Positions 20,426-31,722 of a stretch of DNA of 32,000 nt are shown here, piece after piece. Below the pieces are notes generated by a model. It saw only the letters and a list, made by a program, of their open reading frames with translations. It was not told where the DNA came from and ran no database searches. Every line of letters starts with the position of its first letter. Position 1 is the first letter of the stretch. This DNA is from Nostoc sp. PCC 7120 = FACHB-418 (lineage in GTDB: Bacteria > Cyanobacteriota > Cyanobacteriia > Cyanobacteriales > Nostocaceae): assembly GCF_000009705.1 (NCBI RefSeq), contig NC_003272.1, forward strand, positions 2,100,001-2,132,000, read 5' to 3'. The position numbers and the translations under genes are program-made.

Positions 20426-20983
20426 TTAATAGCAATAATCACCGCCGCTATTAGCCCTATTACGCTCTTTAGCTGTACGCATTGCTCCCAAAATTGTCGA
20501 AACATAGACACAACGCTTAATCATGCCTCTAGACTTACTTGATAAAGTAATCCTGCCTAGAGGTGGTTGTTTAACACTTCCTCGATAATCAAATTGAATT
20601 CGCCTCACATTGTTTGATTGCTGTAAAGTGCTTTCTCCATCTAAACGCACACGAGAATCTAGATTATTCCAATTAGCATTCGTAGGGCTGACACTAGCAG
20701 GATGAACTGCCCATTGAACTATACCATTTTGTTCGCGGAAACTAGCTTGCCACGTCAATTTTTCCTTACTAGCTTGGCTTTGGGCTTGTCGTATGGCATT
20801 GTGAACTTCGTATTGAGCTTTGTTGAGGCGTTGAGTATCTACAAAAGTTAACCAGTAAGGTAATGCTAAAGCTGCTAATATCCCAACCATGAGAATAACT
20901 GCCAATATCTCTGGAAGTGTAAAACCCCGTTCATTTTGGCAATTTAAGCCATTTTTATTATCAAATAGAGATAGTAAAAGCAC
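20426..20983 (-). CDS. hpsH: Prepilin-type N-terminal cleavage/methylation pseudopilin (HpsH position)
   Basis: NERG|FTLPEILAVILMVGILAALALP, with Glu at +5. Paralog of 24238..24933. Confidence 0.7.
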   Translation of the reverse strand: MLLLSLFDNKNGLNCQNERGFTLPEILAVILMVGILAALALPYWLTFVDTQRLNKAQYEVHNAIRQAQSQASKEKLTWQASFREQNGIVQWAVHPASVSPTNANWNNLDSRVRLDGESTLQQSNNVRRIQFDYRGSVKQPPLGRITLSSKSRGMIKRCVYVSTILGAMRTAKERNRANSGGDYCY

Positions 20984-23997: not shown

Positions 23998-24143
23998 TTT
24001 TTGCAGTTTGTACTTAGATTGTAGTTTCTGGTTGGGTGTGTCTGGATGATGTTAAAGACTTAACCGAGGTTATTTTAGGCTGAACTGCAACTGATGGCTA
24101 GTAAATATTTAAGCTAAATTAGTTAAAAGTTAAAATTAAAAAT

Positions 24144-24180
24144 CTGCACCTTATATTTCAATTTTGCTTTGCAGGTGCAG
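24144..24180 (-). terminator. Hairpin plus T-tract between the hpsD-like and hpsE-like genes
   Basis: CTGCACC(24144-24150)/GGTGCAG(24174-24180). On the minus strand it is followed by ATTTTTAATTTTA. The long 23-nt loop lowers confidence. Confidence 0.35.
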
Positions 24181-24237
24181 GTTATTGTACAGTATTCTTA
24201 CTAAGATTTAAGAAAATTTGCTACATCATCCACTTAT

Positions 24238-24933
24238 TTAATTACAATTGTTATCTTTCTCGGTCATTGTTGCACCCAGAATCGTTTTTAAGATAACGCA
24301 ACGCTTAACGTTATTATTTGCTACAACAATTTTGATATGTGGTATTGCAGTGGAGCCAGTTGGTGCTGGCGGATCAAATTCTAGACCTGTTAGACTACCT
24401 ATGTAGTCGAAAGTAATTGTTTGTGGTGTGTTTAAATAAGTGGAACTTGCATTGACAGCAGTACTAACTTTGTTTTTGCTCGTGAGATTGGTCAAGAGTT
24501 TGATTTGTCCAGTAGAGCGGATGTCTAAATCTTCACCTAGAACTTGCCAGCGTTTTTTAGATGGGGTGTCAACAATAGTAGATGCGGCTTCAGAATCAGG
24601 ATGAATAACAATCTTAGGAATTTGGCTTTCAACTTTAAAACTGACACTATATTTTAGTTTTTGTCGTTTAGCTTGTCGCTGTGCTTCTTGTATGGATGCT
24701 AAAACAGCATCGTTAGCTTTGTTGACTCTTTGACGATTAACGAAAGCAGACCAGCCAGGAAGAGCGATCGCTGCTAATATACCTACCATCATCACTACTG
24801 CAATCAATTCTACTAAACTAAAGCCGGAATCTGATTGAGTGTATATTCCAAACTGGCGATTAGGCAGACATAAAGATTTGATTATGCTATTTTTCCTGTC
24901 GATATTGAACGGATGTAAACGTGTTTTCTTCAT
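24238..24933 (-). CDS. hpsD: Prepilin-type pseudopilin (HpsD position)
   Basis: SDSG|FSLVELIAVVMMVGILAAIALP. The predicted leader is unusually long (37 aa) if the annotated ATG is used. Confidence 0.7.
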   Translation of the reverse strand: MKKTRLHPFNIDRKNSIIKSLCLPNRQFGIYTQSDSGFSLVELIAVVMMVGILAAIALPGWSAFVNRQRVNKANDAVLASIQEAQRQAKRQKLKYSVSFKVESQIPKIVIHPDSEAASTIVDTPSKKRWQVLGEDLDIRSTGQIKLLTNLTSKNKVSTAVNASSTYLNTPQTITFDYIGSLTGLEFDPPAPTGSTAIPHIKIVVANNNVKRCVILKTILGATMTEKDNNCN

Positions 24934-24970: not shown

Positions 24971-25993
24971 TTACTGAGTAAATAAATATCCACGTCCTTG
25001 TACTCGTATACTTGCATTTGGAAAATAAGCTCTTTTGTTATCGGCATAATTGAGGTTATTGCTTTGTAGGCGGGCGATCGCATTACCTCTCAAAAATACC
25101 TGTGCCGTAGTGTTAACTCTGTCAACACAGGCATAAAAACTCGTCATTTTAAACGTATCGCGGGTATTAAAATTAGTTGTATCTGGAGCTACCAACGTTG
25201 AGCCAGTAGGACAGGTAATCTTTGATGGTGGTATGATTAGTGGTGAGTTTGGTATTGTCTGGTCAATATAATCAACTAAAACTACAGGCGCTCCGGGAGT
25301 GACATTATTCACTACATCTGCTCCATTAGTATCTTTAGTAGTGTATTGGCTGAGTCTTTTCCAGGCGTTCATCTTTTCATGGATAGTACCTGCGCCATCA
25401 AGGCTGAATAGTGCAAAACCTTTACTTGGGCAATAATCATTACTGATATATTTGCCTGTATATCCATCGCAAGTTACACCACTACTAGCCGTTGTCAGCA
25501 CACCATCCCTAATCTGCCACCTAGCAATACGAGCAGCATTAGACCAGTTAGTATTGCTGTCTTTGATTAAATAGTAAGCAACCAATGAATACACATAAGT
25601 ATCATCTTTTTCACCGGCTGTAACTGTAATGATGTCTTCAATTAGTTCTCTTTTCCAAAAAACTAGGACAGGAACTCTATCTGTTGAGGTTGAACTAGGT
25701 AATTCATTTCTAATAGCATCAATACCAGCGCTATCGTAGATATAGATAGCTTGTTGCAAATCGCGGGCAATGTAATCTACTGCTGCTTGAATTTCTTGTT
25801 CTGAGCTTACCTTTGCCTGTTCTTGTCGGTCTGCATTCATGACGCTGATCATGAAGCCCATTAATGGTGTAATTACCAATACTGCCAAAATCATAGCTAC
25901 CAATAATTCAATCAAGGAAAAACCACCAACTTCCTCTATGAGCTTGGAGCGTTTCAACTGGTTTTGAAGCAGGAATTTTAATGCCCTCATCAT
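24971..25993 (-). CDS. hpsC: Prepilin-type pseudopilin, large (HpsC position)
   Basis: EVGG|FSLIELLVAMILAVLVITPL; 340 aa. Confidence 0.7.
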   Translation of the reverse strand: MMRALKFLLQNQLKRSKLIEEVGGFSLIELLVAMILAVLVITPLMGFMISVMNADRQEQAKVSSEQEIQAAVDYIARDLQQAIYIYDSAGIDAIRNELPSSTSTDRVPVLVFWKRELIEDIITVTAGEKDDTYVYSLVAYYLIKDSNTNWSNAARIARWQIRDGVLTTASSGVTCDGYTGKYISNDYCPSKGFALFSLDGAGTIHEKMNAWKRLSQYTTKDTNGADVVNNVTPGAPVVLVDYIDQTIPNSPLIIPPSKITCPTGSTLVAPDTTNFNTRDTFKMTSFYACVDRVNTTAQVFLRGNAIARLQSNNLNYADNKRAYFPNASIRVQGRGYLFTQ

Positions 25994-26050: not shown

Positions 26051-26767
26051 TTAATTACAGGCTGTATTCGTCGCCACTCCAAGACGCTGACATAAAGCCC
26101 TAAAGGAAGTACTAGTGCTAGAAATGTCGGTTGTCATTTCGAGTAGTGGTGCTTGCCGATCGCCTAAGTTACCAGTAAATGAATTTTGTGTTTTCTTATT
26201 AGATTGACCAGTACTAGCAGTTCGAGTTTTCGTAAAATCAACATCTGCCCTATAAACTCGAATGGCCAAGCGATAGCCATCATTGGCTGAACTTCCTGGA
26301 ACAGTAATTCGGGCAGCCTGAATGTAATATTCAAATGGTTTGTTCGTACAATCTGTTGTGGTGATATTGCCGGATCTTGTAAAGCAGTACAAGCCACTTG
26401 CCGATGAAGGGAGTGCCATTTTAGTTAAATCGTTAACTAAATAATCTTCTGGTCTCCCCGTGATCGGTGGTGTACCGGCAACATCGGCAATCCGTCTGGG
26501 ATCAGATGTGCTGGAAGCAGCAACTTCAATGGTTTGGCTTGGTGCGGCGATCGCTCCAGTTCTCACACCATCAATGAAGGATTTGGCAGCTTGTGTTGCT
26601 AGTTCCACACGTCTTGCCTGAACACGGGTAGCTGTTGACATCACTAGTACAGGTGCGATCGCTGTTAGCAAAATTGCTACTACGATGATTGCTACCAAAG
26701 ACTCAATGATGGTAAAACCGGAATCACTACAAGAAGTTTTTTGTTGCTGTTTTTTAAGTTTGATCAT
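26051..26767 (-). CDS. hpsB: Prepilin-type pseudopilin (HpsB position)
   Basis: SDSG|FTIIESLVAIIVVAILLTAIAP. AGGTGA lies upstream of the ATG. Confidence 0.7.
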   Translation of the reverse strand: MIKLKKQQQKTSCSDSGFTIIESLVAIIVVAILLTAIAPVLVMSTATRVQARRVELATQAAKSFIDGVRTGAIAAPSQTIEVAASSTSDPRRIADVAGTPPITGRPEDYLVNDLTKMALPSSASGLYCFTRSGNITTTDCTNKPFEYYIQAARITVPGSSANDGYRLAIRVYRADVDFTKTRTASTGQSNKKTQNSFTGNLGDRQAPLLEMTTDISSTSTSFRALCQRLGVATNTACN

Positions 26768-26797: not shown

Positions 26798-29700
26798 TTA
26801 CGAGCAAGAACCACGTTGATCTGCATCTATGGCATTTGTATCGTCTGCGGCTTTCTTGGCACACAACAGAATTCTCACCCAAGGATCATCTCTACCAACT
26901 TCTCGGAAGAACTCATCAGGCAAATCATCGGGTATTGTGACTAATTTCTGGGCTAATAAGTCAGGCGATTGAGATAGTAACGCCACATCATAACCCCATT
27001 GCCGCAGAGGAGGTAGGTAGTAGGGAACTGTACCTCTATCGCCAGCGCCAAAGTTATTTATTTGATAGGCGCTACCTGAAAATACAGGCATAAATGGTGC
27101 AGTAGCATAAGTGCTACGTTTAACTTGATAAAAAGCCCCGTTGATTTTGAGTGCTGTTTCGGTAGCAGCAGTATTCCAATTTTCAATCAAGCGTACAAAG
27201 TTGTGTAAACCACCATTATCTTCCGCCCCACGAGTTGGGCTAGTTGTTTTAGGAACTGCGGCTGGGGTGTCTCCAACTGCGGCAATTACGTTGACAGTCG
27301 TTGCTGTGGCTTCTTGTAACCAATTACCATGCTTTCCAGCTTTGACAAAATCGTTATCTGGAACCTCAGGAGTACCAAATGGTCTGTTGTGTTGGAACAC
27401 AAAATCATAACGAATGTTGTTACCAGAAGCAGTTCCTTCTAGCCAAGGTATGAAGTAGGGCTGGCCGCTTGCATCTACCCCGTCTTTTGGTAGTGTTGTT
27501 CCTGTTAAAGGCCAGTCAAACTCTGCTATTTTGCCATCACTGGCAACGCCATAAACTTTTAGTGGAGTTGTTATTGCACCAGTATCCAAATTACGTACAA
27601 AGGCAATTCTAGATGGTTTATTTGGGTTAATATCACTGGTATTACAGTCTATTGGCGAACCACCAATGACTCCTGTTTTAATTGATGTTGCTGGTTTACC
27701 AATAATATCTGCTACACCGTTGTTATCTTTATCTCTCCAAGTACTCTGTCCTATGGCTTGTGTTGGGCAGGCATTTTTAATTGTCCAATTTCTAGGCGCA
27801 TCGCAAGTACTAGCGTAACAAACTTCCAGTAATAGCTGTTTAGCCCGAATTTTTCGTACAATTGGGGTGACAAAGTTGTTGAGATAGGAACTTCCTTGGA
27901 ATCCTGTTGTTGCATCTAAATCTTTGGGAAAGGCTGGAAAATTTCCATTGCTATCGGCGGAGGGATTAAACCAATTGGCAACTGGTACAAAAGAGTTTTC
28001 TGTGGAGAAAGTCCCGGCAGTTGCATAGTTAATCGGACTAGTAGGAACTGTACTTTGGATAAGCTGCCAATCATGGTCTGCTTCGTTGCGGAAGCCAAAT
28101 CTAAAGTTATTAGAAAGTACAGTCAGAGAATCTGCTAATACCGCAGCAGAGCGCCATTGATCACCAGTTGTACACTGCGGTAATCTAGGGTCGCCTGGAC
28201 GACAAGCAAAGTTAGTATTTAAGCCGGTGCGGCTGTAGAAATTGCCCCAATCAGCATCTAATGCTGTGTTAAATTCCTCTTGAGTGTGAAGATTAAAGTC
28301 ACCCTTAATATAGGCAGGCAAATTACTAGCTAAAATCAGTCCCTTCTCTGCGTCTCGATAGGTATTGCTGTCATTACGGGCAATTTTTTGACCGTTAATG
28401 AGCATAATGGCATTAGGACGACGATTAGGATCAAGTCTGTAATCTACGGCACTCTCTAGCCTCTCACTTTCAGTGGGAGCATTTGGATCTGCTGCCGCAC
28501 TTAAATCTAGTAGTGCATCATCACGAGTAGCGTAGATAATACCGCTATTGGGTAATAAATATTCCTGTGCTGGTGTGGTGGTACCGATTGTTTTTCTACG
28601 CAGCTTATTAATATCTAAGACAGTGGCACGGATTTCTAAAGGTTTTCTGTTTCTTCTAAATCGATCATAATTTCTACTCCCAGTCGTAATATCAGTTGCT
28701 TGAATTTGTCTGGGGTCTAAAAAAGCAACTTCATAAATAGAGCCATGATCAATGACTGTATCTGTAGGAGTATTCAGAGTACCATCAAAAATTGCCAAGC
28801 CACAAATTGCTGCATCCACAGCAGACTTTTCTGAGAGAGTGCGTTTCGTCGCATCTGTTTTGTTTAAAGCTCTTCTCAGTAATCTATCATCAATTGAACG
28901 TCCATTGGGATAGGTTAAATCTGCCAGATAACTCAGGACACTGCTGTAAGAACTTTCAGTCTTAGTTGTAGGAAAAGGGTAAACTATACCATTGTTGGAT
29001 AAACCACCAGTTGCACCATTAATTGGCAGGGTTGATATATTTTGCGCCGTAGTGCTATTAGTAGGGTCATAATAGCTGCTAACACAAGCAATAGGTGTGG
29101 GACTAGTCTGACTGTAACTAGCAGATTTGTAGTGATAGACGGCTGTTGCCCGCATCCGCAGATATGGTTGATCTGTTGGTTGACGTACTTCATAAGTAAC
29201 GTTTAGTCCATAATCTTTATAAGGTTGAATGGGGCTAGGTACTGAACTGGTTCTAACAGGTGAAAGATCAGGCCAAATTTGCTGGTTAAGTCCAGTAAAG
29301 GTAGTTGACGACAAATTTGTAGCAGTAACAGTATTAGGCAAATAAATTCCCGCGCCAGTTACTACTCGCAAGCCACCGACGGGTTCTTCTGGACTATTTG
29401 GTACTTGGGCTGCTGCTAATTCCCAATCTCCATCTCGGTCTGTACTACCTAAATCTTTCAATGTTTCTACACGACTGCGACGAGTGCGATCGCCATCGCC
29501 ATCATCCCATTTATAGTTACTAATAGTTTGGGTATCATCGGCATTTGGCCCTACAAATGCTCCTTTAGCTTGATCCCACCAAAGTTGAGGTAGGTTGTTA
29601 CCAACGACAGCGCGATCGCCAAAGTATCCTTCTACACCTTGTAATTGTCTTGAAAGTTTACTTGGCTCAGTTGCAGAAGGTCTGAGCTTGTCAGTCCCAT

Positions 29701-31300
29701 TTGCATTTAAACTCAACCCTGCATAACCGGTTGCATTTAAGCCATCGGCAGGATCAACAGGATAAATCCAAGGATCGGGGGGACGTAAAGTATTGTCAGC
29801 ACCTTGTAATACTTCACTTTCCTTAGTACCACCAACTTTGTAATCTCCTAGAGCATCACCATCAAAAGCCACTTCAGCATAAGGAACTCTGCGGGTACGT
29901 CTTCTAAAATAAAGCTCTAGTTGCTTGAAGCGTAAACTAGCTCTTTCAGCAGTCGTTAAGTCGGTTAAGCTTCTACCTTGCTTGGTTAATACATCTTGCA
30001 TCCCTTGAGTAACTTCTGACGGGTCACTACTTTCAGCGTTAGCTGTTTGGGCAGTAACTAAACGGTTGACACGTTGAGTATAAGCTAGGCTATTGTAAGC
30101 GATTTGTCTTGGGGAATGAGAAACTGATTTATTATTAACTGATGAATTTCTCAGCGCAGTATTGGCAGCACCAGGTGTTTTACCTTTATATAGATCAATT
30201 GATACTCCATTGGTATCACTGTTCTCTGTAATTATTCCAGATCCAATATTGCCTCCAACAACTATCTTGGCGTTTTCTGGATCGTAAAAACAGGATGCGT
30301 TTCCACTAACCTGATATAGTCTGATGCCATCACCACCTGTAGGTAAACCAGCCAGAAGGTTACTGTTAGTAAAAATACGTCCATTTAACCTAAAAGCAGG
30401 CCCAGGGGCTATTCCTAAGTCATCTTCATAAACAACAGCGTTGTTAACTAAAGGCAGTTGTACTCGGTCTTGTTGAAGCTCTAAAGCCGAGAAGCCTTGA
30501 CTACCTTTCTTCTTCTCATAATTGGTGTCTGTGGGTTCTGTGGTAATGGGAACACTGGCAGTGTAAGCAAAAAAGGCTTTTTTCAACTTAGTACCATTTC
30601 TAAACCAGCCTGTGTTACCTACCAAGGCTGCACTTGTATCTTGACCTGCTCCACAACTGCTACTGACAGTCCCAACAGTCATCGGCGGAGTTCTTGCCTC
30701 TAGAGGGTTTCTGGCACGAGTATATTGTCCGCCAGTCACGGGTGGATTTTTAAAGTAAATTCCATAAAGAGCATAGCTATCAAATTTACCGTTGTTATCT
30801 GTATCTATAGGGTACATCCACGCTGTTCTAAGTTCGTTAGAACTTTGAGTAAGTTTTAACTGAGTTTCGTCGCCAAAAGTATACTCATCAATGTTTGTTG
30901 TCAATGTACTATAAAGCGCGTCATCTGTTGGTGTAGCGCGTGGTAATCTTGGGTCTTGAAATAGCTTATTGATTTTTGCCCTAGCGCGGTCAATTGCAGG
31001 GGCAGCAGCATTGAGAGCTGCCTCGTTTACACGGACGTTACTGGCATTTTTAGCCCGTTCAAAAGACCTAAATAAAATTGCTGTGGTTAGTAGAACAACT
31101 ACTAAAGCAACCATTGCTACTGTTGGTAGCACAAATCCAGCATTTGCTGCTCTGCGACGGTTTTTGTTAATAAACAGATGGCGCAGTGTGGAGTTTATCT
31201 GCCTTTTAAGTGTAGATAAATGGTTTTGTTTAAATATGCTTTTTCTAAATAATTTCGCTGTTTTTCTGATTGTCTTGACTAGCTGGCGTTTTATATTCAT
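26798..31300 (-). CDS. hpsA: 1500-aa secreted/surface protein with a pilin-like, Glu5-less N-terminal helix (HpsA position)
   Basis: A single uninterrupted ORF with AGGAAAG 7 nt upstream of the ATG. Basic leader, then ANAG|FVLPTVAMVALVVVLLTTAILF (nt 31121-31138 encode GFVLPT). First gene of the array. Confidence 0.75.
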   Translation of the reverse strand: MNIKRQLVKTIRKTAKLFRKSIFKQNHLSTLKRQINSTLRHLFINKNRRRAANAGFVLPTVAMVALVVVLLTTAILFRSFERAKNASNVRVNEAALNAAAPAIDRARAKINKLFQDPRLPRATPTDDALYSTLTTNIDEYTFGDETQLKLTQSSNELRTAWMYPIDTDNNGKFDSYALYGIYFKNPPVTGGQYTRARNPLEARTPPMTVGTVSSSCGAGQDTSAALVGNTGWFRNGTKLKKAFFAYTASVPITTEPTDTNYEKKKGSQGFSALELQQDRVQLPLVNNAVVYEDDLGIAPGPAFRLNGRIFTNSNLLAGLPTGGDGIRLYQVSGNASCFYDPENAKIVVGGNIGSGIITENSDTNGVSIDLYKGKTPGAANTALRNSSVNNKSVSHSPRQIAYNSLAYTQRVNRLVTAQTANAESSDPSEVTQGMQDVLTKQGRSLTDLTTAERASLRFKQLELYFRRRTRRVPYAEVAFDGDALGDYKVGGTKESEVLQGADNTLRPPDPWIYPVDPADGLNATGYAGLSLNANGTDKLRPSATEPSKLSRQLQGVEGYFGDRAVVGNNLPQLWWDQAKGAFVGPNADDTQTISNYKWDDGDGDRTRRSRVETLKDLGSTDRDGDWELAAAQVPNSPEEPVGGLRVVTGAGIYLPNTVTATNLSSTTFTGLNQQIWPDLSPVRTSSVPSPIQPYKDYGLNVTYEVRQPTDQPYLRMRATAVYHYKSASYSQTSPTPIACVSSYYDPTNSTTAQNISTLPINGATGGLSNNGIVYPFPTTKTESSYSSVLSYLADLTYPNGRSIDDRLLRRALNKTDATKRTLSEKSAVDAAICGLAIFDGTLNTPTDTVIDHGSIYEVAFLDPRQIQATDITTGSRNYDRFRRNRKPLEIRATVLDINKLRRKTIGTTTPAQEYLLPNSGIIYATRDDALLDLSAAADPNAPTESERLESAVDYRLDPNRRPNAIMLINGQKIARNDSNTYRDAEKGLILASNLPAYIKGDFNLHTQEEFNTALDADWGNFYSRTGLNTNFACRPGDPRLPQCTTGDQWRSAAVLADSLTVLSNNFRFGFRNEADHDWQLIQSTVPTSPINYATAGTFSTENSFVPVANWFNPSADSNGNFPAFPKDLDATTGFQGSSYLNNFVTPIVRKIRAKQLLLEVCYASTCDAPRNWTIKNACPTQAIGQSTWRDKDNNGVADIIGKPATSIKTGVIGGSPIDCNTSDINPNKPSRIAFVRNLDTGAITTPLKVYGVASDGKIAEFDWPLTGTTLPKDGVDASGQPYFIPWLEGTASGNNIRYDFVFQHNRPFGTPEVPDNDFVKAGKHGNWLQEATATTVNVIAAVGDTPAAVPKTTSPTRGAEDNGGLHNFVRLIENWNTAATETALKINGAFYQVKRSTYATAPFMPVFSGSAYQINNFGAGDRGTVPYYLPPLRQWGYDVALLSQSPDLLAQKLVTIPDDLPDEFFREVGRDDPWVRILLCAKKAADDTNAIDADQRGSCS

Positions 31301-31722
31301 GGCTGCTTTCCTGTCAAGTTATTTGCTACTAACTTCTCTTTTTTTGACAATCGACAATTATGCCCATAGATCCTATCTAAAGGCATAATTAAAGTTATAT
31401 ATATTTTGCAAAACCCTGCTTTGCTAACTCCCAATTATTGGATTTTTTACTTTATACCATTCTTTAAGTTTTGAGATTTTTCGGTAAATACTGATTTTTT
31501 TCAAAATCTTAATTTTCTAAGTAAATAAGGAGAAAAACATCGTAGGTTTACATTTCGTTTACACAAATAGAGTTCATTGGTGGGTGACTTTATGAAGATA
31601 TGGCTATTTAGATAAACCTATAGTACCCAGCAACCGAATAAAAGATGTCAGTTGCAGCAGTTTTCGTTTGTCTGGAGTAGAAAGTGATTGATTTTAAGGC
31701 AGTTCCGATGACCTCTCCCAAA

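Follow-up and report, generated by a model that had tools for sequence, protein, structure and literature searches.

HpsA of Nostoc sp. PCC 7120, a probable Glu5-less cap subunit of the hps minor-pilin set with a conserved putative calcium loop

What might explain why the giant protein encoded at the head of the hps cluster of Nostoc sp. PCC 7120 begins like a prepilin, with threonine where Glu is expected at position +5, and carries two exact matches to a calcium-loop motif? The protein is HpsA, and its gene occupies 26798..31300 on the complementary strand of the 32,000-nucleotide stretch analysed here (the window; NC_003272.1, positions 2,100,001 to 2,132,000) as a single open reading frame (ORF) of 1500 codons plus stop. 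Its identity is given by the NCBIfam equivalog NF038301 (EPS_HpsA), matched with 1816 bits against a cutoff of 400 and at full length (aa 4-1499 against profile positions 1-1502). The family is large, with 1723 homologues at E≤1e-5 that fall into 694 clusters at 50% identity. We think it probable that HpsA is a Glu5-less cap subunit of the PilX/GspK class, belonging to the hps minor-pilin set formed with HpsB, HpsC, HpsD, and HpsH, and that the first of its two motifs, loop 1, is a Ca2+ site. The basis of this reading is a combination of sequence features, their conservation, a predicted hairpin, the gene neighbourhood, and conserved cysteines, from which we infer cleavage, tip location, priming, and metal binding. 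An earlier note on this DNA, made from the letters alone, had proposed a Ca-dependent, tip-associated adhesin or cap primed by the adjacent pseudopilins, an interpretation that is partly supported by the present analysis. The motifs on which it was built (both loops, WDDGDGD, DRDGD, and ANAG/FVLPT, where the slash marks the putative cleavage site) were all found at the residues and nucleotides it had listed.

The N-terminus of HpsA begins with a basic leader of 55 residues (31136..31300, complementary strand) containing 16 Lys or Arg and no Asp or Glu, and ends with Gly55, the putative -1 residue for prepilin peptidase. It is followed by a hydrophobic, α1N-like segment, FVLPTVAMVALVVVLLTTAILF (aa 56-77; 31070..31135, complementary strand), recognized by conservation, predicted helix, and hhalign, in which Phe56 is +1, Pro59 is +4, and Thr60 at +5 replaces Glu. 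In a set of 112 diverse sequences, including representatives down to 42% identity, Gly55 and Pro59 are invariant, Phe56 and Leu58 are each present in 111, Thr60 is present in 110, and Glu is never found at +5. Among 120 Nostocales orthologues, Asn53, Gly55, Phe56, and Pro59 are invariant and Thr60 is kept in all except one (119/120). The earlier description of a basic leader followed by a helix with Thr in place of Glu at +5 is borne out by these counts. A Gly at -1 and a hydrophobic stretch continuing through residue 77 are what a class III signal peptide has, and the lack of Glu at +5 is the mark of the PilX/GspK class. Such conservation at the prepilin cleavage position exceeds what a plain signal anchor would need.

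All four neighbouring pilin-like proteins, HpsB, HpsC, HpsD, and HpsH, keep Glu at +5, and Thr5 of HpsA is for that reason a genuine exception in its own operon. When a profile of the family N-termini was compared with HpsH by hhalign, the two Gly/Phe sites fell into register, in a weak alignment (22 columns, P=7.7e-4, probability 25%). The mature start of HpsH, FTLPE, shares with the FVLPT of HpsA an unusual Leu-Pro at +3/+4. Sub-threshold matches to PilX_N (PF14341) were obtained with 8 of 38 family N-termini, the best at E=7e-4, and with two of five relatives scanned at full length, which scored 12-14 bits where the cutoff is 25.5. Some HpsA orthologues carry the JGI names PilX or PulG.

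Loop 1, DTDNNGKFD (aa 166-174; 30779..30805, complementary strand), is a nine-residue motif of the PilY1/integrin calcium-loop type, placed at the turn of a predicted β-hairpin. Like the second loop of HpsA, it fits the pattern Dx[DN]x[DN]GxxD, in which positions 1, 3, 5, and 9 offer oxygen ligands and position 6 is Gly. The narrower pattern DxDxNGxxD, which both loops match exactly, would be expected 0.0025 times at the composition of HpsA, and two copies were obtained in none of 20,000 shuffles. In the 112-sequence set, Asp166 and Asp174 are invariant, Thr167 and Asn169 are each found in 107 sequences, Asp168 in 101 (Asn in 10), Asn170 in 97 (Asp in 14), Gly171 in 106, and Phe or Tyr at position 173 in 100, while position 172 varies between Lys, Leu, Arg, Gln, Thr, Ser, and Asn. 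The ligand positions are conserved in orthologues, and interchange of Asp and Asn is confined to positions 3 and 5. A nine-residue Ca loop would be expected to vary in just this way, given its oxygen ligands at 1, 3, 5, and 9, the Gly at 6, the hydrophobic residue at 8, and position 7, where the ligand is a backbone group. A relaxed form of the loop 1 pattern is present in 111/112 sequences. Of 150 cluster representatives drawn from an unbiased full-length search, 135 have the strict form, Dx[DN]x[DN]GxxD, most of the others deviating at the Gly alone. The 20-residue block that contains loop 1 has a mean top-residue frequency of 0.90, about the highest in HpsA. The earlier note was right that comparable loops bind Ca2+ in PilY1 of type IV pili. 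In PilY1, a loop exposed at the surface and joining two β-strands has the consensus Dx[DN]xDGxxD; Ca binding there is required for function and stability, and Asp-to-Ala replacement abolishes function (PMC8833165). Loop 1 departs from this consensus only by Asn at position 5. The identification of loop 1 as a putative Ca2+ loop is the strongest result of the analysis and a detail well supported by the alignments and the models.

We also scanned genome contigs with sequence patterns for distant or short relatives such as Synechocystis PilA12. Only Nostocales were found among the best 80, and as one of the patterns contained loop 1, the scan was kept out of the conservation statistics. On a 6.3-kb contig, CAZZZY010000373.1, assigned to an uncultured Acetobacteraceae metagenome-assembled genome, there is an HpsA head domain that shares 60% identity with the query. 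The contig is probably cyanobacterial and was mis-binned.

Two AlphaFold2 models built from a 48-sequence alignment agree with each other, one of aa 41-1240 (mean predicted local distance difference test score, pLDDT, 77.7; predicted template modelling score, pTM, 0.77) and one of aa 51-400 (mean pLDDT 80.9). Both predict a helix at aa 58-89 and 93-114, approximately the length of a pilin α1, then a short helical stretch, and then antiparallel strands at aa 146-152, 155-165, 175-182, 238-251, and 272-281. In both, loop 1 is modelled as the hairpin turn between the strands at aa 155-165 and 175-182, in a block with pLDDT of 88-95, and the hairpin adjoins the long N-terminal helix. The modelled order of secondary structure fits a pilin head. 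Many short strands follow at approximately aa 287-386, and in the models these are compatible with the β-solenoid reported for the PilX_EPS clade; helical and mixed domains are predicted thereafter. Eight cysteines, at aa 216, 337, 739, 833, 1033, 1043, 1161, and 1166, show little or no variation across the family; they suggest up to four disulfides and would suit an extracytoplasmic protein.

Loop 2, DKDNNGVAD (aa 1190-1198; 27707..27733, complementary strand), is a different case, a lineage-specific motif in a hypervariable region. Asp1190 is kept in just 23 of 120 orthologues, and in relatives at 74-82% identity, which have DKKADGTAD or DKKNDGTAD, ligand position 3 is Lys. The 20-residue block around it is the least conserved of HpsA (top-residue frequency 0.28, 34% gaps), and the region is modelled with a pLDDT below 50. 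The earlier note had named conservation across orthologues as a check on the two putative calcium loops; loop 1 is conserved and loop 2 is not. The motif class to which loop 2 belongs is nevertheless abundant in the family. Besides loop 1, 103 motifs of the form Dx[DN]x[DN]GxxD were counted in the 150 representatives, compared with 2.5 expected from whole-protein shuffles and about 4 from 20-residue block shuffles, which retain local composition, so that the excess is at least 25-fold even by the latter measure. At least one extra motif is present in 66/150 representatives, mostly at 60-80% of the protein length. The motifs recur at about six hot spots with conserved flanks, namely after E.C.K.PVS.C...DWVVGY, WPDSMPMWQ, RRPNGIMLING..LARN, ARNPVGLPDVSGG, EGDYDLRNN...GY, and YTFGDETRL. 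At the first of these, 18 of 134 representatives have the strict motif and 27 of 134 a relaxed one. Loop 2 itself belongs to this first hot spot: it sits 17 residues past the Trp of its conserved C..C..W element, whose sequence in the window protein is CYASTCDAPRNW. Individual lineages gain and lose these accessory motifs. A simple chance match as the origin of loop 2 was considered and is rejected by the family-wide enrichment and the hot spots, although the loop is without positional conservation. No repeat family was found by Pfam over the accessory-loop segments of five motif-rich relatives.

Two further Asp/Gly-rich stretches had been listed in the earlier note alongside the loops, and neither could be upheld as a calcium motif. 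WDDGDGD (aa 598-604; 29489..29509, complementary strand) does not match Dx[DN]x[DN]GxxD; Trp598 is present in 120/120 and Asp599 in 108/120 orthologues, and the remainder is variable. DRDGD (aa 621-625; 29426..29440, complementary strand) lies in a conserved block, DLG.T.RD..WE, in which Arg622 (119/120), Asp623 (110/120), Trp626 (119), and Glu627 (119) are the constant residues and Asp621 (72/120) and Gly624 (74/120) vary, and by its sequence it is not a canonical calcium loop.

How might such a protein work? HpsA would be inserted in the inner membrane by its pilin-type N-terminal helix and would probably be cleaved by prepilin peptidase after Gly55. Together with the adjacent Glu5-bearing pseudopilins it could then nucleate a type IV pilus-type filament, and it would end at the tip, since without Glu5 it needs no subunit above it. 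The extracytoplasmic part of approximately 1400 residues, comprising the pilin-like head, the run of short strands, and further domains, may act as plug and adhesin in the manner of proteobacterial PilY1. Loop 1 would be a structural or regulatory Ca2+ site in the head hairpin that stabilizes or gates the cap, in the way that the Dx[DN]xDGxxD loop does in PilY1 and calcium sites do in GspK and GspG. Loop 2 is best seen as one of many lineage-specific accessory loops of this type, putative Ca2+ loops that appear to be gained and lost in variable surface regions.

Several results weigh against a cap pilin of this kind, and some of them favour a different view of the N-terminus. HpsA could be a bitopic (type II) inner-membrane protein held by an uncleaved signal anchor, with its leader in the cytoplasm, never entering a filament, and with the large periplasmic domain acting as a scaffold or gate for export of the hormogonium polysaccharide (HPS). 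One argument for this alternative is the leader. Across the family its median length is 50 residues (45-55 residues in 115/146 members) and its median net charge +11, and a W-L-L-R, semi-conserved, occupies positions -19 to -16 before the Gly; at about 50 residues it is far above the usual length of a prepilin leader, and it looks more like a retained cytoplasmic tail. The long leader may have a function of its own. Sequence profiles are no kinder to the cap pilin. The profile hidden Markov model searches proposed in the earlier note, for PilX_N, GspK, FG-GAP, and PilY1, gave nothing at threshold. Neither HpsA at E≤1 nor its N- and C-terminal fragments at E≤10 match N_methyl (PF07963) or TIGR02532, profiles that include Glu5 and that all four neighbours match. 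PilX_N (PF14341) and T2SSK (PF03934/PF21687) are likewise unmatched by HpsA, fragments at E≤10 included. PilY1 and FG-GAP, and with them thrombospondin type 3, are Pfam families unmatched by whole HpsA at E≤1, by its fragments at E≤10, and by the five motif-rich relatives. With Foldseek, neither the 1200-residue model nor the 350-residue head model found a PDB match at E≤0.001, and restriction to the head brought no gain; the best hits were non-significant and represent generic helix-on-sheet folds, and ComZ appeared at E=2.9 with a TM score of 0.05-0.09. PDB sequence searches returned only noise with the single sequence and no PDB sequence with the family profile. Both models end before the C-terminal 260 residues of HpsA, the part that by the literature provides the last strand of the sheet, so that closure of the pilin fold by such a strand was not seen. 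The function of HpsA was given as unknown when the protein was first listed (PMC4284469), the later description, of 2019, is that of a hypothetical membrane protein (PMC6495340), and the route of HPS export is still debated in reviews (PMC12288463). We nonetheless regard a permanent signal anchor as unlikely. The invariance of Gly55-Phe56 and of Leu58-Pro59-Thr60, at the very position where the neighbours have G/F..xE, is difficult to explain by an anchor. In the models, a helix some 57 residues long precedes an antiparallel sheet, which agrees in both length and order with a pilin α1 and head, and shorter homologues were grouped with PilX when predicted structures were clustered (bioRxiv 10.64898/2026.02.12.705559). 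For the tip-associated cap, then, the N-terminus, the co-encoded pseudopilins, and the class assigned in that preprint speak in favour, and the missing profile and Foldseek matches speak against; the structure predicted alone gave the helix and sheet order and the loop 1 hairpin, and no significant solved pilin.

The calcium part of the interpretation has its own alternative, in which loop 1 is a metal-free, structural, Asx-rich β-turn, loop 2 and the Asp/Gly stretches are noise of composition, and the resemblance to calcium loops is a coincidence. Position 5 of loop 1 is Asn in 97/112 sequences and not the Asp of the PilY1 consensus, a point that counts against a Ca2+ site. Thr at position 2 and Asn at position 4, neither of them a ligand position in the PilY1 consensus, show the same degree of conservation as the ligands, which suggests constraints of a kind other than metal ligation, and the poor conservation of loop 2 and the lack of any calcium-binding domain profile match agree with a metal-free turn. 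It is harder for a plain turn to account for Asp at positions 1 and 9 without exception, for an Asp-Asn interchange confined to positions 3 and 5, and for a Gly at 6 followed by an unconstrained position 7 and a hydrophobic position 8. EF-hand-type loops commonly have Asn at position 5. Nor would composition noise produce the over-representation of the motif class elsewhere in the family, even against block shuffles, or its recurrence at defined hot spots with conserved flanks. A coincidental likeness is in our judgement improbable, and loop 1 as a Ca2+ site in a cap pilin is the reading that we continue to prefer.

The idea of a Glu5-less tip pilin primed by adjacent pseudopilins has already been published as a hypothesis, and the central idea of the earlier note is not new on that account. 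In a preprint of February 2026 (bioRxiv 10.64898/2026.02.12.705559), predicted structures of cyanobacterial pilins were clustered and a PilX family was defined by a pilin fold with a β-solenoid between the penultimate and last strands. The HpsA-like family (IPR049774) was put in a PilX_EPS subfamily, which is found together with a PilV_EPS subfamily, and the solenoid was proposed as a substitute for PilY1, acting as tip plug and adhesin, in a phylum that is generally without PilY1; the introduction describes proteobacterial PilX as lacking Glu5. The PilX_EPS clade is thus the family of HpsA itself, with Glu5-less tip pilins, a β-solenoid insert, the hps locus, and a proposed replacement of PilY1, the difference being that giant HpsA proteins (>1280 aa) were placed there by InterPro family and not by a model. 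The text of the preprint does not mention calcium, loop 1, the accessory loops, or the long basic leader, and literature searches that paired HpsA with calcium returned nothing relevant. What is new here is the calcium-type loop, together with the accessory loops and the long leader.

The proposed role of HpsA is reminiscent of GspK/XcpX, the tip pseudopilin of type II secretion, which is Glu5-less, is the largest subunit, has a big insertion in its head, caps the GspI/GspJ complex, and binds Ca2+. GspK has two canonical Ca sites, and a third site is present in XcpX with a dissociation constant of 26 μM (PMC6211770; PMC7248040). HpsA differs in having no T2SSK match and no Foldseek match to 3CI0-type chains, and in an insertion that is many times larger. 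With PilY1/PilC, the tip adhesins of type IVa pili, HpsA shares the nine-residue EF-hand-like motif, apart from Asn at position 5, and, for loop 1, a predicted strand-loop-strand context. However, PilY1 is not a pilin and has no class III signal peptide, and its loop is located in a C-terminal β-propeller, whereas the loop of HpsA is in the head beside α1. A further parallel is ComZ of Thermus thermophilus (PDB 6QVI), a tip-associated pilin with a fold interrupted by a large β-solenoid, which the preprint cites as having the same architecture, although ComZ functions in DNA uptake and its Foldseek match to HpsA is, as noted above, non-significant.

The gene neighbourhood provides HpsA with potential partners, all on the same strand. 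As the head of the hps cluster, with pseudopilin genes hpsB, hpsC, and hpsD and glycosyltransferase genes behind it, hpsA is found in equal gene order on other contigs. Lying 3' of hpsA in the window are, in order, HpsB, HpsC, the third pilin-like gene at the HpsD position, and three family-2 glycosyltransferases, and further 3' a GspH-like pilin at the HpsH position, a DUF2064 protein, HpsJ, and another family-2 glycosyltransferase; the remaining genes of the window are housekeeping genes. HpsB (26051..26767, complementary strand) has G/FTIIE, matches NF038303 (EPS_HpsB) with 268 bits and N_methyl, and resembles PilV (TIGR02523, E=4e-7, sub-threshold). HpsC (24971..25993, complementary strand) has G/FSLIE, matches NF038304 (EPS_HpsC) with 444 bits, and resembles GspJ (TIGR01711, E=4.7e-4, sub-threshold). 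The pseudopilin at the HpsD position (24238..24933, complementary strand) has G/FSLVE, matches TIGR02532 with 24.7 bits (cutoff 16.3), and has a sub-threshold resemblance to GspH (E=4.3e-6); its leader of 37 residues is also long for a prepilin. The pseudopilin at the HpsH position (20426..20983, complementary strand) has G/FTLPE and matches Pfam N_methyl with 23.5 bits and Pfam GspH with 22.6 bits, the latter above its cutoff of 21. HpsA is consequently co-encoded with partners of the GspI/PilV type (HpsB), the GspJ/PilW type (HpsC), and the GspH/FimU type (HpsD and HpsH).

Spacing between the hpsA-D genes is 30-57 bp, and a gap of 240 bp, at 23998-24237, separates the pilin genes from the first glycosyltransferase gene. 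The gap is compatible with the separate regulation reported for hpsA-D and hpsE-G (PMC6495340). Two ORFs of 89 and 139 residues, at 27141-27410 and 30969-31388 on the forward strand, are antisense to or overlap hpsA; most likely the long ORF on the opposite strand gives rise to them as by-products. Nostoc/Anabaena sp. PCC 7120 is not known to form hormogonia, yet the reading frames of hpsA and of the hps-type genes downstream of it run without interruption in the window.

How filamentous cyanobacteria link slime secretion and gliding to their type IV pili has yet to be settled. Loop 1 and the family-wide motif enrichment are new details of a protein of known kind, and the enrichment was unexpected. 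As judged from sequence, a calcium-loop motif of the PilY1 type can apparently sit inside a PilX-class pilin, in a phylum that, according to the preprint, is generally without PilY1. A more far-reaching possibility, which is speculative and in our opinion doubtful as a whole, is that HpsA merges the role of PilX, as a Glu5-less cap, with that of PilY1, as a calcium-gated tip adhesin; loop 1 would then be a Ca2+ switch acting on filament stability or on extension and retraction, and the accessory loops would form a Ca2+-dependent, lectin-like surface that grips the hormogonium polysaccharide. A calcium requirement has been reported for cyanobacterial gliding. If the two roles were indeed merged in HpsA, this could provide a possible molecular basis for that requirement. 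Should HpsA simply cap a dedicated filament and carry a calcium site in its head, calcium may act on motility through HpsA.

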